DNA of 64,000 nt from NCBI RefSeq assembly GCF_964194025.1, contig NC_134472.1:4588001-4652000 (forward strand), read 5' to 3'. The notes beneath the pieces were generated by a model. That model ran no database searches. It was not told where the DNA came from and saw only the letters and a program-made list of their open reading frames with translations. How positions within the stretch are numbered: the first letter of the stretch is position 1; every line of letters begins with the position of its first letter. Of the stretch, positions 8,524 through 52,859 are shown piece after piece. Source of the stretch: Convolutriloba macropyga. Taxonomy: Eukaryota. Made by a program: the position numbers and the translations under genes.

Positions 8524-9326
8524 TTTACACTTTATAGCTAAGTTTTTTCGTCGCTCCATCGTGATTAAAACTGTTCCAGCATGATGAAAATCGCAGCTCA
8601 AATATAATTTTTGTACATGAAAAATGGAAAGAGTGTGAACTGATCTTGAAAAAGACAGCATCCAATTTGGTGCAAACCATAATTATTTAAATGCGACAAA
8701 AATTAACAAAAAATTTAAAATAGATCAAAAATGACTCTGATTGTGAGTTAAATAGACCTAAATCAAGAAAAATCTTGAGAACTGCTGTTCCAAGTAGTTT
8801 TGCTACATAATATTGGTTCAACCAGCCATCATTTTAGTTTATGAAAATCGCCTGCGTCCTGAGAATTATATGAAGTTTCAGCTAAAAAATAACCTAATTT
8901 TTGCTAGTTCTATGAAAAAAAAAAGAATATATCAGAAAAATCGTTGCCAAAACAGTGAACTAATTGATTCAACAACCCTGTCTCGTTGAAAGCGTTATTT
9001 ATTGAGCACATCGTCTGTTATTTTAGCAAACATTTCAAAAAGTGACCATAATGGTAACTTCAGCGATAAATTCTCGAAAATGATGTGATTGTTTGGCATG
9101 TGAGGTATTAGAATATGTATTTGATGTTGACAGTTGTACCTTTCTCTCCTTGTCATATGCTTGTCCATAGCATACCAACTGTCCGTTATGTTAAACTGCA
9201 AACTCATTTAGAATAGTGCGTTTAGTATCGACACGACACAATGTTTGGGTATTAACTAGGCGTTTGTTCTTCGCAAAGAGTAATTGTTGTTTTCTTCCAT
9301 TGCTGTGTTTATCTAGCCTCTCTAAA

Positions 9327-11786: not shown

Positions 11787-12760
11787 ATGTTGCATACTAA
11801 TGGGCGAAGTGGTGGAAAATGTTGCTCTGTTTGTGATCACGAATTCTCGATATAATCCGAAAACTATGAGGAACTGCCTTTGAATTGTGGAACTTGTGAA
11901 GACGCCGAAACACCTTCTGAGAGACAGTTTTTCTGCAACTGTTGCATTAGCTCCCATATGCGTAGGTTGCACCGTGCTCTGGACTGCAAAGGCTATGAGA
12001 TGTCAATTTGCCCTAAACACAAATCAATCAATGAATTGTTCTGTCGTAATTGCGACCGTGTTATCTGCCAACTCTGTGTGACGTCACACAAAGATCATAC
12101 AATCATTCCGATCCACGAGAAATGTGTCGAGACTCGCAAAGCAGTGTTCAAATACATCAACGATTTCGATTCTCTGACCAAGGACATCAAGTTTCAACAA
12201 CAGGTTCACCACGACTGCTTGGGAGACTTAGGCAAGGAGCATGCATTCTATAGGCCTGAAACTGTTCTGGATGGTTTAGTGAATGTTTTAAGTGAAAAGG
12301 TCAGAGAAGTTGCGAAAAGTGACGAAAATAAAGGAATTTTTAACATTCTATGCTTTAAATTTTGTGCGAATCGGGAGACGGTTCTAACAAAAACGAAATT
12401 GAATCAATTCGACCAGCTCGTATCTGAAGCTGACACAATGGGAAGAAAGTTACGCGAAATTTTGCAGAATTCTGACGGCGTACTTGTAAAAAAATCGAAG
12501 ATCTGACCGTCTCTATGTACGATAGCTTGAAGCGACAGAAAATTCATCTCAAAGAGGTTGCATGCTATTGCCCGTTCTATATTCGAGATAAAGAATTTCA
12601 GAATTTGGCTCAAAAATGTGTTTCCTCTTTTCTGGAATCCATGATATGGACAGCTGCAAATGCGCACACTTGTCGGGGTTCAGCTGACGTTGGTTTGCAG
12701 TGAACTTCATAACTGCAAGGTAATATTTTTCAAAGATGGTTCTTCCATTGTAGTTCAATC
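11787..12760 (+). pseudogene. TRIM-like paralog 2, pseudogene
   Basis: ATG at 11787 reads MLHTNGRSGGKCCSVCDHEFSI*SENYEELPLNCGTC, with an in-frame TAA at 11853-11855 at a position that is Glu in the 37679 paralog. A -1 frameshift falls in the A-run near 12490. Homology continues (PFYIRDKEF..MIWTAA) and then decays just before the copia LTR. Confidence 0.85.
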
Positions 12761-12872: not shown

Positions 12873-13119
12873 GTGGTATCATAATTATTCAATACATGCT
12901 GGTAAGATTTTACATCAGATGATAATCTCACTCTAATATAAGTTATCTAGATTCACCAATTTCAACCGAATATTGATTCTAAGCACCATTTCTTGACGAT
13001 TAATTTATATAAATTCTGTGATTATAATCAATTTGCTCTTGTCTTTGTAATCTGGTCAGTCAAACTTTCTTTCTAATTCTCACTAAGTTTAAGACTATAG
13101 TTTGATCGATATTCTAACA
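12873..13119 (-). repeat. copia 3' LTR, truncated (about 247 of 619 bp)
   Basis: Aligns to 17760-18000 at roughly 90% by eye. Similarity stops at 12873 and no TSD is recoverable. Confidence 0.85.
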
Positions 13120-13128
13120 CCCCCACTC
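13120..13128 (-). promoter_or_regulatory. polypurine tract
   Basis: Minus strand GAGTGGGGG immediately precedes TGTTAG (3' LTR start) and overlaps the pol stop codon. Confidence 0.8.
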
Positions 13129-16100
13129 AGACTTGAGCTGATTGCGTAGAGTCTGTTCCCATCAAAACTGCTCTGAATGTTTCCACTTTCGAAACGGGTA
13201 AGGTCTTTGTGAAGATGTCTGCTGCCATTTTGTCTGTAGGGACATAATGAATTGAAATAGTCCCATCCTCCGTCTTGTCCCGGATGAAGTGAAACTTTGT
13301 TTCGATGTGTTTGCTCCTTTTGGGCATCGATGGGTTTTGGCACAATTTTATGCAACTCTGGTTGTCCTCTCCAATTGCTATGGGATGTTTCTGTTGGATG
13401 CCGGAATCCCCCAGAAGTTGTTTCAGATACAATGCTTCTAGAACTGCTGCTGCCATGCCCTGATATTCTGCTTCTAATGAAGAAAGGGCAACTGTGGCCT
13501 GCTTCGTGACACCCCAGCTGAGTGCTGCGCCACGTCCGTTGAGCTTGAAGTAGTAGCCAGTCGTTGATTTTCTGTCGTTCACGTCGCCAGATCAGTCTGC
13601 ATCACTTTACCCCACTAAATTATAACGAGCGTCTTTTGTGTAAGTAAGTTGTTTATTGGTTCCAGTGTTTATTGGTAGGTGCATTCATGTGTCTGGACAT
13701 AATGTTGACTGTGAACATGATTTCTGGCCTCGTCTGTTTGGCCAGATACATAAGTGATCCAGCCAAGCTTCTGTAGATCCTCTGGTCCACTTTTTCGTCT
13801 CCGTTCTGTGCTGTCTGAAGTTACAAACTCAAATCAGCTGGAGCTCTTGAGGATTTGCATTGATCCATTTGAAACCGCTGAAGCATTGTTTCTACGTAGC
13901 GTTCTTGGTCGACTGTGACTTTGCCCTCTTCTCGTCTGATTCTTAGACCCCGAAACCAGTGTAATCTCCCTCTGTCTTCCATGTGAAATGTTGCCTCGAG
14001 TGCCTTTTTGACATCGGAAATCACTGTTATGCTTCTTGATGCTACTATGATGTCGTCAACCTAGACCAAGATGAAGGTATGACCCTCTGTCTCCGATCTC
14101 GTGATCAAGCAATGGTCAGTCCTGCTTCTGGTGAACACCTGTCTCAGAAGGAAGTTTGTCAGTTCCTTATACCAGTTGTTAGCTGCCTGTTTCAAACCAT
14201 AAATTGATTTTTTCAGTCGACATGATAACTTCTCTCCATCTGATCCTTGTTTTACAAATTCTTGTGGCTGTTCCAGATACACATGTTCCTCTATTGGTGA
14301 GTGCAGGAAGGCCGTCTTGACATCAAACTGATGCATCACACGGCCTTGCTTCGGTAATAATTGAAGCAGAGTCCTGAATGTCTCTGGCTTTCATGTAGGC
14401 GCAAAAGTTTCAAATTAGTCCAGTCCTGCCATTTGTTTGAAGCCTTTTGCTACATAGCGCGTTTTGTGCTTGTTGACTTGACAACTGGGACTCAACTTCA
14501 CATTGTAGACCCATTTGCCCGGTTTGACGTCCCTGTCTGTGGGTGGTCTCACTATGTTCCAACTCTCGTTGTCTTGGAGAGCCCTGACCTCGTCCTTCAT
14601 TGCCCAGTGCCACTGGCCCCAATCGTCACCTTGTTTGGCTTCGTAGACTGTTTTGGGTTCAACATAGTCACCCTCAGTCACAGCAAGATGGGCCCTGACT
14701 TGTCCAAAAAAGTGCGGAACATTCCTTGCTTGTGTCCATCGTCTGGGCTCTGCCCTGTCCGCTTGCTCCAGTGCCTCTTTAAAGAAGCCAACTGTCTCTG
14801 AGTGTGAGAAGTCCTCTATGTCACTGTCTTCCAGCGACTCCGAGTCTCGGAGATTCCCTCTTGCTGCAGTAGTTTCTCCATCTAGTGCTGCTTCCTCAAC
14901 ATCCGAAGCATCTCGTCTCAGTGTCGTTTCTTGAGTGTTCACGCTCTCTGCGTCATGTCACTCCTCCTTTAATGCAGTAGATGCGCCCTGCTCCTCTTTG
15001 TTGCCATAGTCTTGATGACCATCATCTGGGTGCCAAATCCCCAGTTGCTGTGACCCCTCTTCTAGTAGGTCGGGCGTCTCTGTGTTGACTGGAATTGAAA
15101 CCACTTCGGACTCCTTGTTGATCACATCTCGAACTGCCACAACCTCGCGTGTGTTGGGTACGTACACCAGGTATCCGTTGCTCCTTCAGTGTAACCCACA
15201 AACTTTCCTTCCAGTGCCTTGGGTTCAAGTTTGCTGACATCTCTGTCCCTCTTCCTCATGAAGACTGTGCAACCAAAAATAGATAATTTATTAGGTTTTA
15301 TACCTCGCATCAACTCTGCTGACTATTTTTCTTCTCGTCTCAACCAAGATCCGGATCCTTGTTGCGTGGAGAATTGATTCTACCCACATCATCTCGGGAA
15401 GACCCGAGTCAATGAGCAAGCATCTTGCCATCTCCAGCAGTGTCCTGTTGAACCTCTCAGCTTACCCATTCTGTTGTGGCATCTCTGATCTGGTCGTCTC
15501 CTGTACAATGTCTGCATATAAACAGTACATCTTGAACTGCTCTGAGAGAAACTCGTGCTCATTGTCTTGTCTCAGCTTCTTCGGCGTCCCCACACAGAAC
15601 AAACTTCTTCAGACTGGCCAGTGCTTTACTCTTTGCCTTAAGCGAATCCACAAACAAACTTCGTGTACTGGTCTGCAAACACTATGCAGAACCGGAACCC
15701 TGACAGTGACTGTACTCTGAAAGGCACCATCTCGTCTATGAGCGCCCTCTCCAGCTTCTCTTCTGCTTGGGTATGTGCCACTCTTGGTACTGGAGTCTGT
15801 GTGATCTTTGCCAATGCGCACACATTGCATTCATCATCGAGTTCCCCCACTATTTCTGGTGCATTCCTGACAACATCCGCTTGATTCAAATGACCCAATA
15901 GTCTGTGCCACTTCCTTTCACTGTCAGGTATCACTCTGTTGGAACTCATCTTGAATTCTAGAACGCTGCAGGGTAAGTAAAACAAATTATTTTCTTGTGT
16001 TAGTTTTACTCGAGCTCCCCTCTGGAGTTTCATGCAGCTATTTCCTTTCTCGAAAGTGAAGCTATGTCCCCACTCCGTGCATCTTGAGTCTGATAAGCAT

Positions 16101-16330
16101 CTAGAATAGTTAGGCACACAAAAAACATTTTTAAGTTCGCATTGGAATTCCCCTTTGTTTGAGGGTATGCTGATCCTCACACAGCCTCTGCCCACCTCTC
16201 TGGAAGCCTCTCCATTGGGATTTCTGACCACTGATTGAATGGGCACAAAGTCCAGGAACGCGTCGATGTTCGTCACTATGTGATCTGTACAACCACTGTC
16301 CACTAGCATGCCTGCTGTCTTCCACTGGGT
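13127..16330 (-). pseudogene. pol: copia pol (protease, integrase, RT, RNase H), disrupted
   Basis: Protease LVDSGCTDH; WHRLLGH..CNVC (integrase Zn region); FGCTVF..KLEPKA..GKFVGY; RT HQFDVKTAFLH, LKKSIYGLKQA and V*VDD near 14055; RNase H ATVALSSLEAEY, EDNQ, KHIETKFHFIR, ADIFTK. Confidence 0.92.
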
Positions 16331-16388
16331 AAGAGCTGCTCAGTATTCCTCGTCTGTTGAAGCCAATGTTAGACCCATTGCCACTGAC

Positions 16389-17328
16389 TCATGCATGTTT
16401 GCCTCCATCTCTTTGTTTCTTGCATGCCATGTCTAGATGACCTTTCTCACCACACTTGCTGCATTGTGCTGTCTCCTTCCTCCTGCAGTCCTCGGCAAAG
16501 TGTTTAGGGATCCCACATACAAAGCAGTTTCCTTTCTTGGGTTCCTTCTTGAAGTCACGCTTCACTGCCAGTGCCACTGAAGCACTTTGTCCCTTGTGTC
16601 TTTGTGTAGTGCTCTCATGAAAGTTCTGCAGCCTTTTCCTCAACTCTGTGAAGTTCGTTGCCGGGTTAAAACTTTCCTGTATAACAAAACTTACATATCT
16701 CATTGGCAGGCCATTGAGGACCAAGGCGTTGAAGAGGGTCTCTAAGACTGCTTCCCCTGCTTCTTGTAGATTTGTGAGCAACTCCTGTCCTCTGATGAAG
16801 AAGCTCTCCAAATCCTTAGCATCCTCTAGCTGCAGTCGAGCAAGCTGTGCCACCAAAAACACCACTGTCGGCGTCTACACATTCTGAAATCTCTTGCAAA
16901 AGCTTCCAAGCCTTTGTTCCATCTCCGATGACATCATCTCACTCACAGTCATGTCGCATCAGCATGAGGGTTGTTGCATCTAGATTCAGTGCCAGATGGC
17001 ACCACACATTGTTCCGTTTCTCCTTGATGTCTGCAACTTCCTTTTCATATGCATCCTTCAGCACCTTGTGGTTCTTCTCTTCATTGCTCCCTACATTGGC
17101 TTGTGGTGCAGGCTCATTGGGTTGCTTTTCTGTCCCAAGTAGTGATTTGTAAAGTCCTTTCGTCTGCATCATTGCCACAAATCTTGTGCTCCAGATTAGA
17201 AAGTCCTGTGCCTTTCCTGTGTAGGTCAGCAGCTTCACTGTCTGTTGATCAATCGTACTTTGAGCAGGCAAAACAGTAGTGAAAAGAAAAGGTACTAATA
17301 AGAAAAGGATTTTGACTGTCAAAAACAA
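16389..17328 (-). pseudogene. gag: copia gag with two CCHC zinc knuckles, disrupted
   Basis: YTGKAQDFLIWSTRF, VLNGLPMRY, CFVCGIPKHFAEDC and CSKCGEKGHLDMAC, split over 2-3 ORF pieces. Confidence 0.88.
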
Positions 17329-23200: not shown

Positions 23201-25794
23201 TCAATTATTCTGTCTTTTGAATAATTTTTCCGTCTTTTCTTTGTAGATGCTTCAGCTACTGTCACTTGCCCGCAAACATTGTTTGTTGCAATTATATGTG
23301 TCCGATTGGCTGGTTGTCTTTTGCTTGATCCGTATGTTTTGTCTAACCAGTCTGCCGTTTCGTTCTCAAAAAAAGTTGAAACTTGAGGGCATTAAGGTCA
23401 TCTGCATTTCTCTTACATTTTGTTTGTCAATTGTCCTTATATTTATTTCTTCTGAAAATGTTTTGCGAGTTCTTGAATGTGGCACGCATGTGTTTGTTTT
23501 TTGAAGACTAATATGACTAATCTGATTGAATAGGTCAAAGATGTTTAAAAAATTAGTGTTTTATCAAGTAATTTACAGTTCTTAGGATCAATTATTCTGT
23601 CTTTTGAATAATTTTTTGTTATTTCTTTATGGAGATGCTTCAGCTACTGTTATTTGCCCTCAAACATTGTTAGTAGAAATTATATGTGTCCAATTGGCGG
23701 TTAGTTTTTTGCTTGATCCGTATGTTTTGTCTAGCCGGTCTGGTCTGCTGTTTCATTCTCAAAAACAAGTTGAATCTTGAGGCATTAAGGTCCTCTGCAT
23801 TTCTCTTACATTTTGTGTGTCAATTGTCCTTATATTTATTTCTTCTGAAAATGTTTTGCGAGTTCTTGAATGTGGCACGCATGTGTTTGTTTTTTGAAGA
23901 CTAATATGACTAATCTGATTGAATAGGTCAAAGATTTTTTAAAAAAATTAGTGTTTTATCCAGTAATTTACAGTTCTTAGGATCAATTATTCTGTCTTGT
24001 GAATAATTTTTTGTTATTTCTTTATGTAGATGCTTCAGCTACTGTTATTTGCCCTCAAACATTGTTTGTAGAAATTATATGTGTCCGATTGGCGGTTAGT
24101 TTTTTGCTTGATCCGTATGTTTTGACTAGCCGGTCTGGTCTGCTGTTTCATTCTCAAAAACAAGTTGAATCTTGAGTGCATTAAGGTCCTCTGCATTTCT
24201 CTTACATTTTGTGTGTCAATTGTCTTTATATTTATTTCTTCTGAAAATGTTTTGCGAGTTCTTGAATGTGGCACGCATGTGTTTGTTTTTTGAAGACTAA
24301 TATGACTAATCTGATTGAATAGGTCAAAGGTTTTTTTAAAAAAATTAGTGTTTTATCCAGTAATTTACAGTTCTTAGGATCAATTATTCTGTCTTGTGAA
24401 TAATTTTTTGTTATTTTTTTATGTAGATGCTTCAGCTACTGTTATTTGCCCTCAAACATTGTTAGTAGAAATTATATGTGTCCGATTGGCGGTTAGTTTT
24501 TTGCTTGATCCGTATGTTTTGTCTAGCCGGTCTGGTCTGCTGTTTCATTCTCAAAAACAAGTTGAATCTTGAGGGCATTAAGGTCCTCTGCATTTCTCTC
24601 ACATTTTGTGTGTCAATTGTCCTTTTATTTATTTCTTCTGAAAATGTTTTGCGAGTTCTTGAATGTGGCACGCATGTGTTTGTTTTTTGAAGACTAATAT
24701 GACTAATCTGATTGAATAGGTCAAAGATTTTTTTTAAAAATTATTGTTTTATCCAGTAATTTACAGTTCTTAGGATCAATTATTCTGTCTTGTGAATAAT
24801 TTTTTGTTATTTCTTTATGTAGATGCTTCAGCTACTGTTATTTGCCCTCAAACATTGTTTGTAGAAATTATATGTGTCCGATTGGCGGTTAGTTTTTTGC
24901 TTGATCCGTATGTTTTGTCTAGCCGGTCTGGTCTGCTGTTTCATTCTCAAAAACAAGTTGAATCTTGAGGGCATTGAGGTCCTCTGCATTTTTCTTACAT
25001 TTTGTGTGTCAATTGTCCTTATATTTATTTCTTCTGAAAATGTTTTGCGAGTTCTTGAATGTGGCACGCATGTGTTTGTTTTTGAAGACTAATATGACTA
25101 ATTTGATTGAATAGGTCAAAGATTTTTTAAAAAAATTAGTGTTTTATCCAGTAATTTACAGTTCTTAGGATCAATTATTCTGTCTTGTGAATAATTTTTT
25201 GTTATTTTTTTATGTAGATGCTTCAGCTACTGTTATTTGCCCTCAAAAATTGTTTGTAGAAATTATATGTGTCCGATTGGCGGTTAGTTTTTTGCTTGAT
25301 CCGTATGTTTTGTCTAGCCGGTCTGGTCTGCTGTTTCTTTCTCAAAAACAAGTTGAATCTTGAGGGTGTTAAGATCTTCTGCATTTCTCTTACATTTTGT
25401 GTGTCAATTGTCTTTATATTTATTTCTTCTGAAAATGTTTTGCGAGTTCTTGAATGTGGCACGCATGTGTTTGTTTTTTGAAGACTAATATGACTAATCT
25501 GATTGAATAGGTCAAAGATTTTTTTAAAAAAATTAGTGTTTTACCCAGTAATTTACAGTTCTTAGGATCAATTATTCTGTCTTTTGAATAATTTTTTGTT
25601 ATTTCTTTATGTAGATGCTTCAGCTACTTTTATTTGCCCTCAAACATTGTTTGTAGAAATTATATGTGTCCGATTGGCTGTTATTTTTTTGCTTGATCCG
25701 TATGTTTTGTCTAGCCGGTCTGCTGTTTCGTTCTCAAAAACAAGTTGAATCTTGAGGGCATTAAGGTCCTCTGCATTTCTCATACATTTTTGTG
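23201..25794. repeat. tandem array of a ~396-bp unit, 6 full copies plus a partial seventh
   Basis: Unit starts (tcaattattctgtctt) at 23201, 23588, 23983, 24380, 24776, 25171 and 25568. The core copies are near-identical. Confidence 0.97.
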
Positions 25795-26773
25795 GGCTGC
25801 AAGTGTTTGGTTAACCGAAGCTGTCGAAGAGGCCAAATTTTACGATGTGAGGGGCTATTTAGGGAAGCTAGGATATGTCACCATATACACACAATTTTTG
25901 CTGTGAGTGACGATTTATTGAGGTTTGGACATACCACCACCCATTTATACACAGTTTTACACCCTCACGCTCACTTATCTCTGCTACCCTCGGTTTAGCC
26001 GCTCACTCAGGCGGTGAGTCTATCTTCTCTAGGTTAAGCTAGCTATTGTCAATTCCACACCATTTTCATTAGTCCGATGTTAGTCGGCTATGTTTCGAAC
26101 AGTTTACGACCAGTAGTTCAAATAGCTTTACTATTTTTCTCCTTCGTAGTTCAAATTATTTTCCTTTCCTCCTACTCTCAATTTTTCATGCACTGAACTG
26201 AAATTGTGCATGGGCAAAAACTGAATGCTTTCATCAAGACCCGAAAAGATAAAAAATTGTTTTAAAAGCTTGTTGGAAATATAGCTAGATAGAGAAAATA
26301 GGAAAATAATGATAGAATTTGGCAGTTGATATTGCGTTAAAAGTCTCAGAGTTGCTTTGAGGCTTTGTCCCTGAAATATTGTTTGCAAGTTGTCTGTTGC
26401 TTTTTATAGATCTAAGTAGGTACGGAGGCTTATGCGGCTGGCAATAGTTTTCAAATGCGAAAGTTATAACGCATTATTCTTACATATCGTGCTGCTCTCC
26501 TATACGAATTTTGTAAGATCTCGCAAGTAAATCTGAAAAAATGGTAATTGAACAATTTTTTCTGCTTCTCATTAAAAAAGTGGATTTTATCACTATTTTG
26601 ATGTCACTTTTTTAATGTTATTTTTAGCTCATAAGTTGGATTTTATTGGGTTAGTTTTTGTAAGATATTCTTATCTCTTCTGTAGAGAAGTTTCATTTTG
26701 AATCCCATTAATTAAAACCTATGACGAATCTCTGATTCGCCGAATCCTAATTCTCCTTTGATGCTTATAAAAT

Positions 26774-28805
26774 TCATAATTGATATGTATTTAAATTGAT
26801 ATAAAGTAGTATATTTTTTAACCAATCAGAATGCAGAATAATTATTTCTAAAAGTGCTGGAAAGAGAATAAATAATATGGGAGAGAGACTAAAAACTGGA
26901 TAATAATATAGTTGCATTCCAAGATTCTGTTTTTCCTAGTCGATTAGATTTGGGGATTTGTAGGCTGGAACCCGTATCCGCTGGCTGAAACAAGAAACTC
27001 GGTCTACCGACATTATATGGTGACAAGGGTGGGATTTTTGCCAGGTTCAGCTGAAACTCTTCTATCAAAGTTTCCTGGGCCTGACCCAAGTCATTACTGT
27101 TTGGGAGCTCTGGCAACGGCGGCAATTGCTGAAATAACTTGCCCAATGGTGGTGATAGCTCGATATTGAGCCTTACTGCACCTGTCGTTTTACAGGAGGC
27201 GAAATCCGATTTGATGAAAATGTTATTTCCTTCGAGTTCATTTCCACATTTTAATGTTATTACGCACGCACTGCATCCCTGGTGATGTTTAACATCAGCC
27301 TAGCCTGTTGAGTTGGAAGGCCTCTCCGTCATCAGGAAATCTGGATTTGCACTTGTGATTAGCCAGCGCCCATATCCAAGATTTTCGGCCTTCTCCTTTC
27401 GAGGCAATTGGATGCTTTTCACCCTACAGTTTTCCAAGGCTTCGTACTCGTCTTGAAAGAGAAGGGTAGCAATGCATGAATCCTTATTTTTTTGCAAAGA
27501 GAAACCATTTTGGCAGACGCTGTAGCTAACTGATCCAATACAGTTCTCAAGATCTCTCGGAGTCAGTATCGCAGCGAAGTGACGGTTCTCAGTAACTGCA
27601 ATATATTCGCTCTCAATTTCCCAGCGTATGGCGTGGCTGCCATTTGTGGGAATTGGAATCGTTTTCGCATTGTAAACATTCAGCACTGTAGATTTCGTCG
27701 CCATAGGTATCGCTAACGTAAAAATGATCCCGATTTCATTACTCAATACGCTTTTAAGCAGCGGAATTTCGTAAAATGATAAAACTTTAGAAATCGGTAT
27801 AGCCAACGAGAGCATATCCGTGGAGTGCAATTGTTGTCTTCCGATGGCTTCAAGAACTTCGGTAAGCTGTTCTTTTGGGAAGAGTGCCATTGGGAGAAAT
27901 CCGTTCGCCATATGACCCAAGTTCTGGAACAGGTTTGACTGAAATGTGTACAATGCTACGCGAAAACTCTTCGCAATAGTGTGTAGTGTGCTCTGAATGC
28001 CTTGTAGAGATATTAAGTTGTGGTTCAGCGACGTTCTCGTATAGAAGTACTGATGGCAGTTTCTATATTTGTGGATATTTGCATTGAAAGTTTTCATTTG
28101 CTCTTCTATTTGCTTGTTTTTATCGTTCTGAATATTCGTAATCTCGTCTTGTCGTCGCAGATGTGTCAGCGTCGAAGCTAACACGAATAGTCTTTGATTG
28201 TTTCTATCTTGGACTTGCGACCAACGCTTCTGCATTTTATTCACGTGGTCGACCGTTTGTAGAAGGGCTTGTTTGTTCAGATTACTGTCTCCTGCAGAGC
28301 ATGAACCCAGGATTGATGTCAGCGCACATGACAAGGTTGAGCCACTACTAAGTCCGAGGCCGAACAGACCTGCCCCTGCAGCGAAAGTAATTGGCGCTAC
28401 TCGTGTTGCCCTGTCAAATGAAGTACGTTTTGTATCTGCTGGGGTTAAAAGTGTTTGCGCGGACTTGATGAGCTCTCTTTGCCAGTCCCTCTTCGCCAGT
28501 TGCAGCTCGTATCGGGTTTGTTTGAGTATCCACTCAATTGTCAGGTTGCTTTTGCTCATTCTTGTGAAATTGAGTTGACATAAATTTGTATCAACTTTCC
28601 ACAGGTCGTCAAGTGTGGCGGCGACTTTATCCAGGTAGTTTTGCAACGAAGCATTAAGAGAAGGAAAGGGCAGAACAAACTCCGCGTTGATATAACGCTC
28701 CCCTAGGAGAATTTTCCTGTCAAAGTTGAATAGGATTCCTCGTTGGGAGTCTCTAAGTGCAGCGAAGCTGGTCATCAGGTGCGTAAAGGCAATGAGTTTC
28801 ATCAT
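26774..28805 (-). pseudogene. class I viral fusion glycoprotein (baculovirus F / errantivirus env-like), ~670 aa, one stop and a frameshift
   Basis: N-terminal hydrophobic leader; furin-type RATR followed by fusion peptide VAPITFAAGAGLFGLGL; heptad-rich helices; GFLPMALF, FTLAIP, VYNAKTIPIP, EYIAV..LTPRDLENC..YSVC..SCIATLL. The frame continues past TAG 27300-27302 (ADVKHHQGCSACVITLKCGNELEG..SDFASC) into the 26889-27146 ORF. A frameshifted TM segment (SLSPILFILFPALLEIIILH) follows. Confidence 0.8.
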
Positions 28806-28866
28806 TTTGGTTTTTTTTCCAATTCGCAGAGGTCGGAAAGTGGAGGACTGTGTGGGGTTATAGTAT

Positions 28867-29345
28867 TTATAATCGCTCCATCAATATGTGATTTCTGTTG
28901 AAATTACTGGCTGGATTGTTGAAAGTAACATTCAGAGTTTTTGTACTATTGTTAAACCTCCGGAATGTTGGGTAGAGTTCATCCGTTATATGTACAAAAT
29001 ATCCTCTCGAGCGGTCACCAAAATTAACTATTATGGCTGCACCAGATGGGACCAGTTGGACTCGTGACAATGCTCCAACTCGATCATTTATTTCTAGGCG
29101 CATGTTTCTTTTAATGGAGGTGCATGTAGGGAGGCATAGACATCGAGTCAATTTGTAACGTTTCCCTAGAACGGTCTAGTAAATCTTTGATGTAATTGAA
29201 GCTGTATTTGTGTGTCCAGAAAATAAGTATGCTGGGCTCGAAATCCTTCTCGAGGTTAATCAAAATGAAATTCTTTGAATCCGGGTAGAAAAAATGTTTA
29301 ATCTCATAAATCTCGCTTTCATTTAAGTTTAAGTTGAAAAAGTTC
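28867..29345 (-). pseudogene. orphan ORF upstream of env, probably frameshifted
   Basis: The open frame NLNESEIYEIKHFFYPDSKNFILINLEKDFEPSILIFWTHKYSFNYIKDLLDRSRETLQ overlaps near 29150 with the 94-aa ORF 28867-29151 in another frame. No recognisable family. Confidence 0.4.
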
Positions 29346-30092
29346 TGCGTTTTGCATCGTTAATCGGGTTGCTGAGAATGGACGGAAAATAAGGAATGCT
29401 TCAAGCTAATAATAATCAATTTCGCTTTTTCTTTGTGCTTTTGCGTGTGAAAGAATTTTGAAATCAAAGTTCTGATGAAAAATAACAAATAAGCAATCGT
29501 TTATTTACTCGAATTTATTTTTGTCTGTTTAGTAGAGTACTCAAACTTCTCAATCGAATTTTTGTGTAGGAATAAGCGTGCTGTTGCGTATTCAGGGGAT
29601 TCAATCGGGGCACAAACTTCAGATTGTTTATATTGTTTTTTCTTAATCCGCTTAAGCGGAAAGTATGGCAGGTGTTCGTAATTACCAGCGCTAGGTAAAA
29701 TTTCCAAGTTTTGCAATGGTTGTTCTTGTGTTGTCGCAACGGTATCGCGGTTCGCTTTGTTTACGGTTGCTGACGTAGATGCAGGTGTAACAACGTAAAC
29801 AAAAGAATTTTGTTTTATTTGGTAGCACCTGCCTATGTACTTAAGCTGATTATTGGAATTCTCGACCTCACAAACGTTCCGCTTTAGTTATTAAAAAAGG
29901 ATTAAATTGCAGCAGGTGGTGCCGTATTTTGTTGGTTGCTGGGACAAACAATGACGTGGAAGAAATCACGCGGTTTAAAAATGGGTTGTTTTGACAACAG
30001 ATGATATCATATTAGAAAGTACGTCACGGAGCATGAAAAATGAAGTATTTAGGGGAAATTAATTTGAAAACCAGCTATTAAAGAATAAAAGG

Positions 30093-30416
30093 TCACATTA
30101 TTCTTTGATATGGTATTTCCAGCAAATCAAGATGAATGTGTTTGCCAAATTTGATACTGGACTTTAGAATTAAAATTTGGTCAGGACAGTCAAGGGAAAG
30201 TAACAGTATGAATCGTTCCTCAAAGTCGGGTGTAACTATTAAGATGTAAAATAAAAGATCCTCGGAATAGAAAGATGTTAAGATTTGAAGTGAATTCTGT
30301 TCAGTAAAGGCCAAAACAAATTTATTCGCATGAAATTGTGTAAAAAAGGGTAATTCTGAGCAAAGAGATATCATAAAGTCCACGTACTGATCGTTCATAA
30401 TGATGTCTCTAAACAC
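30093..30416 (-). CDS. orphan ORF (107 aa) preceded by a Lys/Glu-rich low-complexity tract
   Basis: ORF track; same strand as env. The upstream 30420-30600 is purine-rich on the minus strand (K/E/R codons). No recognisable family. Confidence 0.35.
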   Translation of the reverse strand: MFRDIIMNDQYVDFMISLCSELPFFTQFHANKFVLAFTEQNSLQILTSFYSEDLLFYILIVTPDFEERFILLLSLDCPDQILILKSSIKFGKHIHLDLLEIPYQRIM

Positions 30417-30731
30417 AGAAGTAGTTTTTTTTTGTTTTCTTTTAAATGTTTCCTTCCGTTTTTGTTCCCCTGCCTTTTTCTCTTGTTTTCAGTTTTTTTT
30501 TGCTTTCTGTTTTTTCTTTTTTTCTTTTTTTTCTGGCCGGTGTTGCCCCCGTTGCATCGCAACGGTGTTGTTGTTGAGGATTGTGTGGTGCAAGTTAGGA
30601 TCGTACCGGACGCCTAGCCGGTTTGCTTTCTAAGTATAAGCAATATGGGTTAATTTATGCCCAAATTTTTTTGAGGTCAAAAAACTTAGCAATTTCCAAG
30701 TGGACTAACCGAGTGCATTTACAGATTGAAG

Positions 30732-31022
30732 ATGGAAAACTGTAATGAAATTGTGAAAGATGATGGTATTCAAATGTTTTGTTGCAAAGATGCTACTTAT
30801 TTCATGGAAAAGGGGGTCTTTTTATCGCAAGTTCCTGGACGTGCAACTGAGTGTCCAGTTCTAGAAGTAGAAAATTTAGTTTTGAAAGGCAGCAGCCAGC
30901 AGTGTGATCTGTGGTTCGGGCTATTCATTGGGCTTGCTGTTTGTAATGTCTGTGTGTTGACTATTGTTTTGTACAAGAAGGCGAAGAAGTGTTGGAATCA
31001 ATTGAAAGCTCCAAAGGAATAA
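30732..31022 (+). CDS. small single-pass membrane protein
   Basis: MENCNEIVK..., a Cys-containing N-region, TM LWFGLFIGLAVCNVCVLTIVLY and basic stop-transfer KKAKK. Preceded by acceptor-like tttacag (30719-30725). Confidence 0.55.
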   Translation: MENCNEIVKDDGIQMFCCKDATYFMEKGVFLSQVPGRATECPVLEVENLVLKGSSQQCDLWFGLFIGLAVCNVCVLTIVLYKKAKKCWNQLKAPKE

Positions 31023-31294
31023 GCTTAGAAATGCTTAGAATACTGTTTTGTTGCCTTTTAGCAAAGCAACTTTGGTTACTGTGACTGACTCTTTGTGACT
31101 TGTTTTGTATTTAGAGTGGCTTAAATTTTACACTTTACTTGTACTCTACTTGAATTTTCTCTTTGTTTTAGTACAACTTGTCAATTGAATTCGGGCTTTC
31201 CTTTTTTTTTGAGTGAATATGAGTTAACTAATTAAACTTTGCGCTTTTGTTATATATCTTCAAACGAACTGAAGACAATTTTGAATTATTTCAG

Positions 31295-32105
31295 ATTGTA
31301 TGGTTTACACAATAAGGTAGCGCATGGTCTTGTGGTAACAGGCGGACAATCAACAGAAAGTGTAGCAATTTCTACAAGAGCAGGTGAGTAAAGAAAAAAT
31401 AAAATACGTTTTTATCAAAGACAAATGCTATGTTCAATTTGGGAAGGGACTCTGTTTTATGTCGGGAGTTCAATTGGATTTAAATGTTGTATTGTAGTTA
31501 AGGTGTTCATTGGCGATTACAAAAATAACAATTACTTCAGTTTTCGGGCAAAAAGAAATGATTTAAATCAAATTCGGGTGTTGACTTTATTATTATAATA
31601 AATTTTTTTTTAAATTAAATTACAATTTGTTTGCAAAAAATCAGTTTTATGTATTGTATATTTAGTAATGGAATTCAATCTCTACATGAATATAATGAGC
31701 CAGCTAGAGGACAGAAATCTGAAGAACCGCGAAGCGCTTGATTCAAGCGCATTGCGTAAAATTTTCTTAGGACGTCTCAGAAAGTTTAAATTAATAAACG
31801 GTGCACTACATTACGAAAACGCTCTGGTTCCTCTGAATTCAGAGTTTGAGTGTGCAATTGAAGAGTTGCACGAGCCGGGTGATGGAAGTCATTGTACTTC
31901 CATGAAAACGCTTATGAATGCGCTCCGGAGAAGCGGCATCAGGCTGCCCAGAGCTTGGGGTGGTCTTGTAATTGCGGTTGAAAGGTAAAACACACGTAGA
32001 AGTAATCTCGTTTTAGATTTTCTGAAATTAATTTTCTTTTGTAGCTATATACATCACTGTGTACCCTGTTTTACCACCGATCAAAACCCGAATGTATTGA
32101 GTTGA
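31295..32105 (+). CDS. predicted spliced stand-alone integrase-type H2C2 zinc-finger protein (exons 31295-31383, 31666-31984, 32045-32105)
   Basis: FKLINGALHY..LVP..IEELHEPGDGSH is in exon 31666-31984. Removing the 60-nt GT-AG intron 31985-32044 adds SYIHHCVPC and completes HHCC. The upstream exon (tttcag|...CAG|gtgagt) joins in frame to ATG 31668. Confidence 0.65.
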
Positions 32106-32347
32106 GACCAACTAGTCTGTGAGTGAGGTTAACGATGCTTTGAAAGAAGGCTTTAAGTCGGTGTCCCTTTTGCCCTCCTATTGTGCTTTTTTCATTTCGA
32201 TCAATAATTTTTCAGCAAATTTAGCCCCATTTCTTTTTCCTTTATAATTTTGTTTTTCAAATGGTGTTACCAGCAGCCGGTTATTTTTCCTAGAAATTGT
32301 CCGTGCTTTCGAAAAATTGACAATCACAAACTAACGCTGCTGAGCAT

Positions 32348-32510
32348 AATCGTCTTTATTTTTATTGTTTTTGAAAATGTTTTGTGAGTTCTTGAATGTG
32401 GCCTGCGTGTGTGTTTTTTGAAGACTAATTCGACCAATCTGGTTGAATAGGCCAATCAAAGATTTTTTAAAAAAAACAGTATGTCTCATCCAGTAATTTA
32501 CAGTTCTAAG
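32348..32510. repeat. resumed, more diverged remainder of the 396-bp unit
   Basis: tgaaaatgttttgtgagttcttgaatgtggc...gaagactaat...ttgaatagg...ccagtaatttacagttct matches the second half of the unit. Confidence 0.9.
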
Positions 32511-33158
32511 TAGAATGATAATTCAGAGAGCTCAAGTTTGAGTTTGTAGTTTTGATTGATCTTGACGCTTTTTTTAAAGAAAATGTACGTTTCTAAATAT
32601 TGAATATGAATTAAGTTTTTCTCTAAAATTTAGATTGAGCTGTTACTAATTTTGATTTCATGCTATAATGAAATGTTTCAGATAAAAGGTTATTATTTCC
32701 GTTCTAAAGGTTCTAAAGGCGTTCTGAAGTTGTTAACTGATTGTCCTGTTTTCCTTTTGCGATTGTGATCAGCAGTTTTAGGTTGATGACTTTGATTACC
32801 CTAATTCCAGAAGTGTTTGTGGATTTTTGTGCTTTGCCCCTTTGTTGCTGCTAGTTCATTTTGTTATTGCAGGCATTTTTAATTGAGAGTTTAATTTTTT
32901 TCTGATGATGCGCAGTTTCCACTGCTTGAGTGTATTAAAGCGTAGGTACTGAATTTAAGGGCTCTTACTACACTGGTTTTTGAAAAAAACATATTGCTTT
33001 TGCTCTCCCTATTTGCTATCTGCTTGCCCCATCATTTTTTGTTAGTATTAAAAATTAGTGTGTTTGTAGGTCAGAACTAGCTGTGCTCATTTAGTTTTTT
33101 TTTCTGTCAACGATCTTTACATTTGAATTAATTTTGAGGTTGGAATGATTTGATTTCG

Positions 33159-34865
33159 ATGGAACCACAAGAAGAAAACTGTTCAGCCAATGAGAATTCT
33201 TGTGCAGAATGTCAATTTGAGTTTGATGTCAGTTCTGAAGACTCAGAAGAGCTCAGTTACACCTGTTCAACTTGTAACGAGACCAAAGATGGAGCACTTA
33301 AGCTGCAATTTTGTAATTATTGTATTGTCTCACATGTTCGCAAGCAGCATCGTGTTTTGGACTCGAAAGGTTACGATATTTCAGTTTGTGATCAACATAA
33401 ATCAATTCACGAGTTGTTCTGTAGTTACTGCAATTTTGCCTTGTGTCGACAATGTATAACAGGACACAGGGGACATGAAATCATTCCAATTCGCGAGAAA
33501 TGCGCCGAGACGCGCAAGGAAGTTTTCAAATACATGAACGATTTCGATTTACTCACAAAGGATGTGAAATTCCAACAACATGTTCAGAAGGAGTGTTTGG
33601 AAAGTTTGGACGATGCTGTAGCATTTTGTAGACCGGAAACTGTTGTTGATGTATTGATTAGTCTAATTGCGGAAATGGTCAAAGATGTCGCGAGCGATGA
33701 AGATGTTAAAAGTTTGATTTCTGAACTGAGCGCCAAATTCGATCAAGATAGTAAGTTGACTCTCACTAAAGCGAAGTCAACTGAGTTTGATAGAGTGGTT
33801 ACAGAAGCGGACGATATTGGATTGAAGTTGAGAGAAGTGTTGCAGAATTCGGACGGAATGCTCGTTAACAAATTCAAAGCGATGGTAGACCAGATGGACA
33901 CCTCATTGAAACTACAGAAAGACCAGGTCGCAAATGTCAACTTCATGCAGCCATTTTATGTTAATAATCCTCAGTTTAGAAGCGATCTTAAGGTTGTTGT
34001 AAGAAAGTTTTTTAAGGATGTGGCATGGCCCACTGCTAAAACTGTGAAGCCGGTGATAGTGGGTTCGGAACGTGGACCCCCCATTACCGGTAATCAGAGA
34101 ATCGTATTATTTCCATTCGATGTCTATTGCCTGGTAGAGATGAACCATGAAGTCAACGAGAGGTTGGTTCGGATCATCAAGTGTGGTAATAAAACAGCGC
34201 TGATACCTCCTCGAAACTGTTTCGAATGCGGCAGACTTCTGGGTCAATTATCGACCATCATGTATGTATGTTGTCAAAGGTCTCTGGCCAAGGGCACAGA
34301 TCCCTACAATTTGGTTTCTTTTGTCAAGTTAAATAAAAAATCTCGTAAAATTGACTACAAACAGTCTCCTAAGACTCTTGAAAAGACAGTTGAAATAGTC
34401 TACCCCATAGGCATGGAACTCAAAAGGAGCTTGGGTGAATTCGTTGCCATATACGGAGATATTTTCCATATTGTCAATCCGTTCTGTGACGACACGGAAA
34501 CGCATATTCACCCTAAGCCACTATTTGACGGCGAGATAGTTCGAAACAACTTTTTTGTATACTACAGTTTGTGTATATCAGCATTAAATTGCCTTATTTA
34601 TGACAATGAATCGAAGAAATTGAGACCATATCTGACCGATAAAACGTTTCAGTCATATTCATGCCCCGAAAAACCGTCAGCTGTTACAGTGAGCAACGAT
34701 TTCAAGACTCTTTTCGCTGTGTTAGAATCAACTGGTGAAATTTTTGTGTTTTCCAGTGGTAGAGTCTGTAGATTTGTATTTCGAGTCCAAAAAGCTTTTG
34801 CTGCTCATCTGTTTGTTGAATTGTTAGAATTATGGCTACGTGGCAAAGTTGGCCTGACTGTTTAG
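33159..34865 (+). pseudogene. TRIM-like paralog 3, 3'-truncated (homology ends ~34760)
   Basis: Open from MEPQEENC with both B-boxes, EKCAETRKEVFKYMNDFD, WPTA, LNCLIYD and CPEKPSAVTVS. After EIFVFSSG the sequence is unrelated, lacking HGLR and the last ~115 aa of the 37679 paralog. Confidence 0.8.
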
Positions 34866-35906: not shown

Positions 35907-37678
35907 ATTTTTAATTGACAATAAACATTTTTTGGTCGCAACATCTAATTTAGGGTTTTATTTGTTACTTACCAGAAACTTTGATTTACGCAATTAATTA
36001 TCATTGGTGACCAAAAATCACGCTGCTGAAAAATGCTTGTGACTGAATTATTTTATTTTGCTTTTCGATTTGGATCATAATGGATTTTCAAATAAATTTA
36101 ATCTGTGTTTTTTTGGTATAATTTTCCCCGTTTCGTTTTGGATTAATGGTATTAGTTGCTCTTTCAATTTTCTTTGATTTTCTTCCAATTGCTCGTGAAG
36201 TGAGTTCAGAGTCTAAAAACCAGTCCGGCTCCTTTTTGATCAGATTTCGGCGTTTCTCATATTTCACTAAGAGAACAAGAGGTGGTGATAACAAAACAAC
36301 ACCCGTGATATGCATTAGTTATAGATTTTGAATCGTTGCAGTCCACGGGCTAAAAATTTTCATTTTTATCTTTCCTTATTTTCCTCAATTCATGTAGGAA
36401 GATAAAATTTAAAAAAAATTGTAAATACTTGTAATTTGTAGCTTAAAAATATTTGTAAAAAAATAGAGCGAATTCTGCGGGAATCTCATTTTCCTCTCTG
36501 TCAGTTCAGGGACATCGTAAAGAATGAAGGCACTGGAAATTAATTCTGTTTAATTCTTTTTATGTTCAATAATTTAAAATAGTTTTTCAATTGGTGATTT
36601 GAAATGGTATCTTACAGGTCATTAAGATGCAGATTTTTACCCCAATTTCTGCTTTGGTTCCTTAATATATCAGATTTTCTTATATGGCTGAAATTATTTT
36701 TTTCCTTGAATTTTTTTGCGATTGCTGGGAAATGGAAATTCGGATACAACACTGCTCGTAGATTTTAGAAATACTACTGATTTACTACCGAAATGACACG
36801 AGAAACAGTCTTGAATGTCCTGAGAAGTTGCAACTTGCTTTGAACCAATGGGAACTGGATATGATACATACAGCTCATTTTAGCTAAAATGTGGGCACAG
36901 AACTTCACGAAATACTTTATACATCTTTAGCTACGATTGGTGGTCATTTTCATCAGATTTCTTTGCGACTGTTGTAGCTTATCATTTCAAAAAAAATTCT
37001 ACTGAAAATTTGAGACTTCTCTGGGAAATAGTTCGTCCGCTTAATATTCAGCAGCAGGTTGTTAATGCCAAAAGTGTTTCTTCTCCAGAAACATGGGAAA
37101 AATTGAATCAAAATGTGCTATAAAAATTTCTGTTCGATGTTAAATTTTAAACGAGAAAAGCATTTTCGAAAGCATTTTTTCAGATTGTGTTGTGCATTGT
37201 TAGGGGTCGGTTTTTTCAGTTTTTGAAAATTTGGGCGTTCAATTAAATAATTTGAGTCAACTGACTTTGATCAGAGGTACTTTCATTCCGTCAATTGATT
37301 GTTAACATCAATTAAATTTCTTTGATTTTCTTGTCGGGATGGTGTGATTTTTTTATACTCTCCCAACATTAACAAAAGTTGTGTCTCGATGCGAGTTTTA
37401 TATTTGGCTATTTTACCCTATAATTTGATGTTGATCGAAATCCGTATTCTTAAAAGCGAATGTCATTTTGCAGCTTTAGTTCAATAATTTCAGTGGACAA
37501 TAATTACAGTGAGCCTCATATCTGCAGTTTTCCGTTTTTCTGCAATTGTGAAACGCTTCTCATCTGAACTATCTGAAAGTAGCTTTCATAGGGGGGGGGG
37601 GGAGGGGGCAAACAAGCATGTCTTTCAGTCATTTTTTATCTTTGGTCTTGGATATCTTCGGTATTTCAGTTCAAAATT

Positions 37679-39595
37679 ATGGAAAAGGTCTGCTCGATCT
37701 GCGAAAGCGATTTTTCGATGGAATCGGATAATAGCGAGGAACTGCCCTTCAGTTGTGAAACATGTGAAGAGAAGAGAGCATCGGCTGAGAAGCAACTGTT
37801 TTGCAACTTATGCGTTGGTCAGCACGTGCGCAGATTGCACCGTGTTCTAGACTCGAAAGGATATGAAGTTTCAGTTTGTAAACAACACAAATCTATGGAC
37901 GAATTGTTCTGCACGGATTGCGATCATTCTTTTTGTCGGTTGTGCCTTATGCTGCACAAAGAGCATGATTTTGCGCCAATTCATGAAAAATGCGCAGAGA
38001 CACGTAAAGAAGTTTTTAAGTACATTAATCAATTTGACTCTCTTACGAAGGATGTTAATTTTCAGCAGCAGGTTCGAAAGGATTGTTTGGAAGCTTTAGA
38101 CAAAGCTAATGAGTTGTGTAATCCGGACACGGTTTTGGATGTACTGATCAAGATAATGAGTGATATGGTCCGAGAAACAGCAAAAAATGAGGATATTCAA
38201 ACGCTGCTGACAAGTTTGCAAGAACAGTTCCGCCAAGATTCCAACAAAACGACTCTAACAAAAGCAACGTCAGCTGAATTTGACCAGCTGGTGGCTAAAT
38301 CTGTTGAGCTGGGTGAGAACTTACGCCAAGTGTTGCAGAACTCAGATGCTGTCCTCGTTGACAAATTCCAAGGCTTGTTATCTGAAATGGAAAATTGCTT
38401 GAAGAAGCAGAGAGGGCAAGTTGGATGTGTCAGCTATATGCACCCGTTTTATATAAATAACGTGTCATTTCAAGGAAAACTGTCAAGCCTTATTAGTGTT
38501 TTCTTCACATCGATGGTGTGGCCCACCGCCTTTACTAAAGAGCCCCTTCAGATGCAGTTGAAACCTGGAGTATTGTTACGTGACAATTTCAAAATTGTTC
38601 TTCATCCCTTCGATGTATATACTTCTGTTGAGATGGACGACAGAGACCAAATCACTTTTGTGTCAACTGAAAAATGTGGCAACCGTACGCCTGCTCTTCC
38701 AACTAATTGTCTAAATTGTGGCTATCCTTTGTGGGGAATTTCAAGATGCAGTCAAGCTTCATATATGCGCTGTCCTGAGAACCCTCTTATAGATCCCTAT
38801 ACTTCAATTACGTCTTGTAACACTGTGCAACCTCGCCGTGAAGTTTCAGTCACCGACCAGAAGACGGTCGTTAGACTTTTGGAAATTGAGTTTCCATTGG
38901 AGGTGGAATTGACAGTAAGATTGGGTGATTTTGTTGCTATGTTTGAGGATGGACTTTACATATTCAACTCATTTGACAATTCTGAGAACAGCGCTTCTTT
39001 CAGGCTACTTTTTGATAAGCAGAACATTGAGCAATTTTTGCTCGTTTATTCTAGCTTGAATTTGGCGCGATTGAATTGCTTGATATATGACGAAAAGTTA
39101 AAAGAGATACGTTCAATTTTGGAGGATAAATCTTTTGAACGATATCAGTGTCCTGAGAAACCGTCGGCTGTGACTGTTAGCAGAGATTTCATGACACTAT
39201 TTGTGGCTCTGAAATCCACTGGCGAAATTCTAGTGTTATCTGGAGGAAAGACAGAAATTATTCCGCCTGTACATCATGGCTTGCGGACAATTGACGCTCT
39301 TCATTTTGTTATCAATGAATCGTACACTCCGTTTTTGCTTGCGTGGAATTACACGAAGAGGATCTGTGTCATTCTTCGTCAGTACACCTCTAAATACATT
39401 CCGATCGGCGTTGTCTCTCCAACGGTGCCTGATGACGGCTCTGCAGATTTGACACTTACAGAAGTCAAGGTCGTCAAACAACATCAAAAACTTGAGTTTC
39501 CAGATATGCTCTATTTGTTCTACACCGATGCTAAAAATAAGACTCCGAGCAGCTTCAAAATTACAGTTAAAGAGTTGCTGGCTTACTTTAAATAA
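37679..39595 (+). CDS. RING-less TRIM-like protein, paralog 4, 638 aa, intact
   Basis: CSIC..CETC..CNLCVGQHVRRLH (B-box1), CKQH..CTDC..CRLC..HKEH (B-box2), coiled coil, WPTA, LNCLIYD, CPEKP, HGLRTID. Confidence 0.9.
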   Translation: MEKVCSICESDFSMESDNSEELPFSCETCEEKRASAEKQLFCNLCVGQHVRRLHRVLDSKGYEVSVCKQHKSMDELFCTDCDHSFCRLCLMLHKEHDFAPIHEKCAETRKEVFKYINQFDSLTKDVNFQQQVRKDCLEALDKANELCNPDTVLDVLIKIMSDMVRETAKNEDIQTLLTSLQEQFRQDSNKTTLTKATSAEFDQLVAKSVELGENLRQVLQNSDAVLVDKFQGLLSEMENCLKKQRGQVGCVSYMHPFYINNVSFQGKLSSLISVFFTSMVWPTAFTKEPLQMQLKPGVLLRDNFKIVLHPFDVYTSVEMDDRDQITFVSTEKCGNRTPALPTNCLNCGYPLWGISRCSQASYMRCPENPLIDPYTSITSCNTVQPRREVSVTDQKTVVRLLEIEFPLEVELTVRLGDFVAMFEDGLYIFNSFDNSENSASFRLLFDKQNIEQFLLVYSSLNLARLNCLIYDEKLKEIRSILEDKSFERYQCPEKPSAVTVSRDFMTLFVALKSTGEILVLSGGKTEIIPPVHHGLRTIDALHFVINESYTPFLLAWNYTKRICVILRQYTSKYIPIGVVSPTVPDDGSADLTLTEVKVVKQHQKLEFPDMLYLFYTDAKNKTPSSFKITVKELLAYFK

Positions 39596-46453: not shown

Positions 46454-46489
46454 AGTCAAACATTGGGGATGGACCAATGCCGATACCAA

Positions 46490-52840: not shown

Positions 52841-52859
52841 GATTATTCCCGTTTTTAGA

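Follow-up and report, generated by a model that had tools for sequence, protein, structure and literature searches.

The locus and its parent element

The stretch of DNA considered here, referred to as the window, comprises 64,000 nucleotides (nt) of contig NC_134472.1 of Convolutriloba macropyga (positions 4,588,001 to 4,652,000 of the forward strand). At 26720-32072 the window holds a dead fragment of an approximately 16.2-kb Ty3/gypsy gag-pol-env element with an F-type env. On balance, it is probable that this block represents a dead and inverted piece of a lineage which keeps, between pol and env and antisense to both, a gene for a small transmembrane (TM) protein and a predicted gene for a zinc domain joined to an OTU-like domain.

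The fragment begins with the element's 5' long terminal repeat (LTR) on the plus strand (26720..27017; TAT...ATA termini, 98% identity to the LTRs of full copies), followed by the primer-binding site (27018..27036, plus strand), whose last bases, 27030-27036, are common with the antisense strand of env and mark the inversion junction. The minus strand then encodes residues 1-592 of the 766 amino acids (aa) of env (27030..28802, read from 28802 to 27030), without the membrane anchor and with an internal stop and small indels, and three orphan open reading frames (ORFs) in the sense direction of the element, of 78 aa (28867..29103), 82 aa (29111..29359; frameshifted near its start in the window copy) and 101 aa (30093..30398; adjoining an A/T-rich low-complexity tract). 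The strands diverge at approximately 30400-30730, and from there on the plus strand carries an ORF for a 96-aa Cys-rich single-TM protein (30732..31022), with an antisense TM ORF at the same place in sister families, and the beginning of the second antisense gene. Of the latter there remain exon 1 (31668..31984), with a domain resembling the integrase N-terminus (the HH of H2C2), a predicted 60-nt GT-AG intron of phase 2 at a position conserved across families (31985..32044), and a stub of exon 2 with its CxxC motif (32045..32072), the remainder of the gene, including the OTU-like domain, being missing. Since the copy ends 28 nt into exon 2 and lacks the env anchor, it is considered dead. A preliminary description of this DNA had recognized the F/env-like gene, two to three minus-strand orphan ORFs, the plus-strand TM protein and H2C2 gene and the divergence of the strands, all of which are borne out here; the LTR and primer-binding site at 26720-27030 had escaped it. 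The ORFs of the window gave nothing informative against Pfam. A 127-aa minus-strand frame (29501-29887) was rejected as a gene, as other copies did not show it as an ATG-initiated ORF, and a possible small AG...GT-bounded exon, maybe a 5' leader, was seen by eye between the TM ORF and exon 1 (31297-31385, plus strand).

When the genome that contains the window (1.18 Gb) was searched at the DNA level, the block fell into four parts. The part at 27030-32072 matches many loci at 97-98% identity and older loci at 71-90%, while 26720-27030 is matched twice at each such locus, approximately 16 kb apart and in the opposite orientation relative to the first part, which identifies it as an LTR. Copies running from LTR to LTR, with a candidate gag, protease, reverse transcriptase (RT), RNase H as well as integrase linked, are approximately 16.2 kb long and present many times (e.g. 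G000:C6:62301673-62317874); their LTRs of approximately 300 bp, again TAT...ATA, are 86.7-98.7% identical within a copy, and 5-bp target duplications are exact at six of 13 insertions as printed and at two more after a one-base shift. In ordinary copies the 5' LTR is followed by a 13-nt complement of tRNA-Leu(UAG) as the primer-binding site. The pol domains above cut-off stand in the order RVT_1 (E=7.6e-21), RT_RNaseH (2.4e-16), Integrase_H2C2 (4.8e-14) and rve (6.8e-14), with the protease below cut-off at E 0.05; the gag candidate is a 328-aa ORF with a CCHC knuckle below cut-off (E 0.15) and is 30-44% conserved in sister families. Downstream of pol lie 5.6 kb of accessory DNA and then the 766-aa env. 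As had been stated, the gag, RT, RNase H and DDE core of the element are all missing from the block, but its description as RT-less does not hold for the element, since the full copies encode an RT and the block lost its own by truncation.

Each of the copies examined is broken or rearranged at places of its own; some copies are internally deleted, and solo LTRs also occur. Tandem duplications of 1-3.3 kb are frequent inside element copies, maybe as products of template switching or as assembly effects, with exon 1 present in five tandem copies at C2:64162746-64168790. In several families pol ends in a conserved segment of approximately 90 aa, absent from the window family, which may be a macro domain.

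The env has 31 homologues at 31-95% identity among 8000 candidates scored, and neither it nor three of the homologues gave an informative match to Pfam. Its predicted structure (mean predicted local distance difference test (pLDDT) score of 72.3) points to a class I F fold, the best match in the PDB being the F protein of human parainfluenza virus 3 (hPIV3; E=2.4e-7) among 144 matches at E<=0.001 to F proteins of paramyxoviruses and pneumoviruses, and baculovirus F stands among the top viral matches in BFVD together with other viral glycoproteins. A cleavage site, RATR, is followed by a Gly-rich hydrophobic peptide, and the hydrophobicity of the helix at the C-terminus is no more than moderate, with all 19-mers at 1.5 or below. 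The protein falls into the class of F-type env proteins set out by Chary and Hayashi in the main text of their paper (PMC13524379).

The element fragment lies between two single-copy flanks outside the element (25795..26719 and 32073..32346, no strand), neither of which had any match besides itself in the genome search, the window or the fetched loci. To the left stands a local array of 6.6 tandem copies of a 395-bp unit (23201..25794, no strand), which is host context, and to the right a diverged remnant of the same unit (32347..32510, no strand; 81-84%), in register with the array. The preliminary description had the block sitting in register inside a satellite unit and arriving there as one piece. 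The register stands, with the array resuming within a few bases of it at 32347; the supposed satellite is an array found at this locus only, and the arrival in one piece has to be given up, as only 26720-32072 derives from the element and the remnant is older than it. The remnant is 83% identical to the array units, which match one another at 95.6-98.8%, and the youngest copies of the element match its part of the block at 97-98%, so that the element is nested in older DNA. A young element fragment inside older single-copy DNA is thus the simplest reading of the block. In contigs from four sequencing runs of one study, summed depth was approximately 150-740 over the element body versus 30-52 over the right flank, and loose ends run on as in full elements.

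It had alternatively been proposed that the whole 6.5-kb block is a mobile, RT-less env-donor unit that inserted as such, for which the register of the array on both sides would speak, as would the internally deleted, LTR-bounded derivatives that the family has elsewhere. We regard this as extremely improbable: no own termini at both ends and no second copy of such a structure were found in the genome, single-copy DNA lies on either side, the only LTR comes without a target duplication to match, the block breaks off within an exon on the right, and array remnant and element differ in age. The block is, instead, a truncated and inverted gag-pol-env fragment.

The way in which the inversion arose is suggested by its junction. 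By the established mechanism of retroviruses, 18 nt copied from the primer tRNA form the end of plus-strand strong-stop DNA. In the window, 27018-27036 reads as a complement to the 3'-terminal 18-19 nt of tRNA-Leu(UAG), genes for which account for two of five pattern matches in the host genome, and its last seven bases are the first seven of the inverted env segment, the 5' LTR and primer site being joined there to the inverted env-accessory region. That the junction restores the 3' end of a host tRNA-Leu makes reverse transcription the likely stage at which the inversion came about. Plus-strand strong-stop DNA with the tRNA-Leu primer copy at its end would have mis-annealed through seven bases to the sense strand of env, and its extension backwards would have produced the order LTR, primer-binding site and inverted env and accessory region, with the right end removed at or after insertion. 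A deleted copy at G000:C5:12319400, in which the LTR is followed by 43 nt of reverse-copied tRNA-Leu and then by env in sense direction, supports the occurrence of such primer errors in the element family. A DNA-level rearrangement after integration, or an assembly error, is improbable as the source of the inversion. It would fit with the tandem duplications and the one further inversion found in other copies, and among the contig pieces listed, a minority of all pieces, none is shown bridging 27030; at the DNA level, however, the primer-binding site and env have a single base in common at the junction, and still the six bases of the tRNA complement that follow are restored by the join (approximately 1 in 4096 by chance), while an independent copy bears a longer tRNA copy at the same place. 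If the origin in reverse transcription is right, the junction preserves, as a natural record, an event in which plus-strand strong-stop DNA was mis-transferred by way of the copied tRNA primer. The second inverted copy (G000:C8:286320-298072) has its 3' untranslated region and LTR duplicated in opposite orientation (98.8%), both of its ends being 3'-LTR ends.

An antisense cassette between pol and env

The small membrane-protein gene and the predicted five-exon gene together form a cassette between pol and env that is antisense to both. The plus-strand H2C2 ORF had 53 matches in the genome, many at approximately 30% identity, and exon 4 matched at least 150 places from 200 candidates. Around 20 cassette loci, ten taken from the H2C2 ORF matches and ten from those of exon 4, 20 kb were fetched: the cassette exons run opposite to env or pol in all 20, env adjoins in 19 and parts of pol are in range in 17. 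The families concerned are only distantly related to that of the window (RT identity 45-58%, env 24-34%), and several have LTR pairs at 99.5-99.8% identity. The cassette is therefore conserved in position and orientation across the lineage, and the earlier suggestion, in which the block was the accessory part of an endogenous retrovirus-like lineage of unusual complexity, was correct and, if anything, understated, the cassette being kept across the whole radiation.

In four of six families tried, all four predicted GT-AG introns, of phases 2, 1, 0 and 2, were found at homologous positions; the first three were found in a fifth family and only the first in the sixth, the incomplete sets, due to inexact seed frames or positions, being counted as misses. 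The introns of the four complete sets are 60-94 nt long, apart from one of 210 nt, and each is richer in A and T than the exon upstream. Each of the 20 exons examined has an open antisense frame. Between families, identity is 0.28-0.35 at third positions as opposed to 0.50-0.72 at second positions, synonymous divergence (dS) is saturated and nonsynonymous divergence (dN) is 0.43-0.98. Coding on the sense strand was rejected as the cause of this conservation, with only six of 60 sense frames open and none consistently so. In an RT tree of 28 elements from this genome the cassette spans the deepest split and its distribution needs two changes; the same split is found again in the trees built from exon 1 and from exon 2 (86/97 and 97/98, respectively), a pattern that fits vertical inheritance with losses.

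Several observations have to be set against the importance or the reality of the cassette genes. As the 20 loci were chosen by cassette similarity, their uniformity describes context and not prevalence; all ten loci picked by env instead were without the cassette, very high-copy families included, which makes it dispensable for amplification. The introns are predictions from sequence. Within the window family, exons 2-4 show ratios of dN/dS of 0.17-1.71 against older decayed copies, near or above 1 for most, from few changes. The loss from successful families and this near-neutral pattern would both agree with the cassette being a passenger, i.e. a fossil Ginger1-like or Helitron-derived insertion that has no current function. 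A passenger would have decayed, though, whereas open frames, splice sites and catalytic residues outlast synonymous saturation between families, including in copies with LTRs 99.5-99.8% identical; we consider this explanation very unlikely.

The Cys-rich TM ORF precedes the five-exon gene and was found by a profile from four families at ten of 32 loci scanned. The 96-aa ORF of the window family is borderline against that profile (E 0.08), shares its pattern C...CC...C...TM and has a dN/dS of 0.34-0.54 against older copies; a score of 0.84 to unnamed clusters in the ESM Atlas, being below 0.9, serves as a lead only. In four families the ATG of the TM ORF lies approximately 125-200 nt from the env start, head to head, and this spacing suggests a bidirectional internal promoter. 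The sense ORFs of the window family, which sit between the divergence point and env, have dN/dS values mostly of 0.1-0.5 (0.10 and 0.53 for the 78-aa ORF and 0.10 and 0.37 for the 82-aa ORF against the two most diverged copies; 0.29-0.51 for the 101-aa ORF against older copies) and no match in Pfam.

A sister clade of the window family is without the OTU gene and has 7-8.4 kb between the integrase core and env (G000:C2556:50001-70000, C2:75376001-75396000 and C4:23222001-23242000). This gap holds other antisense orphan ORFs (496/420 aa, 277 aa and an 88-aa TM ORF), 30-45% conserved between families, the two largest of which had no match in Pfam.

Predicted product and role of the antisense gene

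For comparison with exons 2-4, an OTU profile was built from seven OTU domains of this genome, found by a PF02338 search in ORFs of approximately 2500 aa, and it matches the structures of OTU1, OTUD3, OTUD5 and the nairovirus OTU. Exons 2, 3 and 4 are collinear with the profile (E 1.3e-4, 0.42 and 1.5e-3, respectively), and when joined in order, with an X for each intron, they reach an hhalign score of 49.0 (Prob 93.6%, E=2e-7, 126 columns), whereas 100 shuffles of the columns gave no more than 22.0 and the five wrong exon orders 30-33. Across these exons a Cys box (19 of 21 loci), a helical region and a His box, HCEP (16 of 21 loci, with two of the misses reading HCNP), occur in that order. 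The source ORFs are themselves intact and have the OTU domain at their N-terminus (L129:601-8142, with related loci on C10, C2 and C807); the one of them that was scanned is a Helitron RepHel protein.

For exon 1 the indications come from a structural model. Both His residues are invariant (14/14), and the start of exon 2 has CxxC in 16 of 21 loci. The model of exon 1 (pLDDT 77.9) had as its top two matches among 48,161 folds the integrase N-termini of Ty3 (Z 5.7, root-mean-square deviation (rmsd) 4.5, 89 residues aligned) and of foamy virus (Z 5.3, rmsd 3.5, 69 aligned), the next match being at Z 4.3. The ORF of exons 1-2 scored 0.84 to an Integrase_H2C2 cluster of the ESM Atlas, again a lead only. 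These matches are suggestive of a fold like that of the integrase N-terminal zinc domain.

It has to be noted that a number of results weigh against these assignments. The zinc-domain Z-scores are below 8, a Foldseek search with the exon-1 model gave no match at E<=0.001, and the exon-1 profile scored at shuffle level against the elements' own integrase N-terminus (17.6 versus 17.15). The OTU match is a comparison of a five-sequence with a seven-sequence profile; single exons matched neither the OTU nor the H2C2 family of Pfam (0/20) nor any PDB sequence, and a six-frame PF02338 search of the genome does not list the cassette, where the domain is split over three short exons. Naturally spliced or intron-less products were also sought: one search yielded one unspliced relative only, another 28 matches, mostly no longer than one exon and breaking off close to shared boundaries, with repeats or chance matches among them, and the longer cluster members revealed no upstream extension. 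Taken together, an integrase-type zinc domain joined to an OTU deubiquitinase is the likely product of the predicted gene, and we hold it to be quite probable that an OTU-family protease is expressed.

In the model favored here, a promoter inside the element, probably bidirectional and directed away from env, would drive transcription of the cassette, and the transcript would then be spliced. The introns would survive reverse transcription because they are antisense to the genomic RNA and cannot be removed beforehand. The zinc domain would tether the OTU protease to chromatin or to the integration complex, where the protease would strip ubiquitin or a ubiquitin-like tag, so that element proteins are protected or host silencing is blunted; this specific role as a tethered deubiquitinase is put forward tentatively, at slightly less than even chances. 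The likely source of the gene would be a Ginger1-like transposase gene captured in antisense which then lost its DDE core; alternatively, the N-terminus of the element's own integrase may have been joined to a Helitron OTU.

A different possibility is that the spliced antisense gene is real and the protease it encodes has a target other than ubiquitin at the integration complex, with the zinc domain being only structural; element proteins or env might be processed, SUMO might be removed or a host immune signal blunted. The conserved catalytic boxes would suit this as well, having no bearing on the substrate, and the neighboring antisense gene, which encodes a membrane protein and in several families stands head to head with env, is a pointer towards the envelope side of the life cycle. 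The closest profile is, however, the OTU family, and OTU domains are fused to DNA-acting enzymes in Ginger1 and Helitron RepHel, as described for these elements in PMC2836005 and PMC6431247, which favors action near DNA. This alternative is accordingly judged to be unlikely.

Surroundings, known systems and implications

At least six intron-less B-box/coiled-coil (TRIM-like) paralogs surround the insertion (9195-11279, 11856-12506, 33138-34865, 37592-39595, 50214-52142 and 58318-59478), with a zf-B_box match at E=3.5e-7 for the one scanned, and there are two more local tandem arrays at 45180-46478 and 52430-52848 (199/462-bp and 10-61-bp periods). A decayed LTR element at 13095-16874 (minus strand), unrelated to the present finding, retains pieces of a gag knuckle, protease/integrase, RT and RNase H, in a motif order which we take to be copia-like.

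Among known systems, the ancient errantiviruses (PMC13524379) are described in their main text as sharing the LTR-gag-pol-env layout, an F-like env with a basic cleavage site and fusion peptide, a tRNA-Leu primer and a recent multi-copy spread. They differ from the present elements, in which the gap between pol and env is 2.5-5.6 kb and has the antisense cassette inside; the main filter of the screen in that work admitted pol-env gaps of 0.5-1 kb, wider windows were set by hand for some phyla, and the words "antisense", "accessory" and "OTU" are absent from its main text. In its predicted layout the cassette gene resembles Ginger1 of Bao et al. (2010, PMC2836005), whose transposases are described as having the arrangement H2C2-DDE-OTU: an N-terminal gypsy-type H2C2 zinc finger, a C-terminal OTU and one to four GT-AG introns. 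Unlike Ginger1, it is situated inside an LTR element and has neither a DDE core nor a GPY/F motif between the two domains, only approximately 55 residues separating the CxxC from the Cys box and no rve match being found in the cassette exons; terminal inverted repeats of the Ginger1 type with CCGG/CCGT duplication were found neither in the window block nor in self-comparisons of ten cassette loci (repeats >120 bp).

Conserved antisense ORFs downstream of pol in Ty3/gypsy elements are likewise described for plant Retand, Grande and RIRE2 (PMC7264820, PMC11963269), those of Grande with their own internal promoter. These are plant elements without an F env, encode TRP28 or Smc domains and no protease according to the accounts given there, and the word "intron" is absent from the text of both papers. 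Closer to the present case in being animal gypsy-like elements with env and extra cargo are planarian Burro, with ubiquitination- and apoptosis-related domains among its cargo (PMC6431247), and the bdelloid rotifer elements with ORF3 cargo and small TM ORFs (PMC5408684); their cargo resides in the polyprotein, accessory ORFs or ORF3, and the portions of these papers that deal with it mention no antisense spliced gene or OTU. For Oikopleura Tor3b/4b an internal env promoter is documented, and no antisense gene is described in the passages concerned (PMC4402516). The nairovirus L OTU, a virus-encoded deubiquitinase, offers a functional parallel and is not a gene of an LTR retrotransposon. The same can be said of HBZ of human T-cell leukemia virus type 1 (HTLV-1), a bZIP protein driven from the 3' LTR that is encoded by a spliced antisense regulatory gene of a retrovirus. 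OTU domains as such were already known in Ginger1 (PMC2836005) and Helitrons (PMC6431247), as far as these papers describe them. Full-text literature searches, with the greater part of subscription papers and of Repbase reports outside their scope, turned up no env-carrying LTR element in which an OTU gene or a spliced antisense gene is reported. The predicted antisense deubiquitinase gene would be a new kind of accessory gene for retrovirus-like elements.

Descriptions of animal env-carrying Ty3/gypsy elements give them genomes of three ORFs, and a screen that restricts the distance between pol and env and considers the sense strand only would miss this lineage. The fullest form of the proposal, still tentative and with a little less than an even chance of being right, is that the radiation has kept, from a time at which synonymous sites were not yet saturated, an antisense, intron-bearing deubiquitinase, an integrase-zinc-domain/OTU fusion taken from a DNA transposon and co-expressed with env by a bidirectional internal promoter, that counters ubiquitin- or SUMO-dependent silencing by the host. 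If true, the conserved OTU gene would be an assayable candidate for retrotransposon-encoded counter-defense, parallel to viral deubiquitinases, and its antisense placement, which hides the introns from splicing of the genomic RNA, would be a route for a retroelement to keep an intron-containing gene indefinitely. The lineage would then amount to an invertebrate "complex retrovirus" with a deubiquitinase as its accessory gene.

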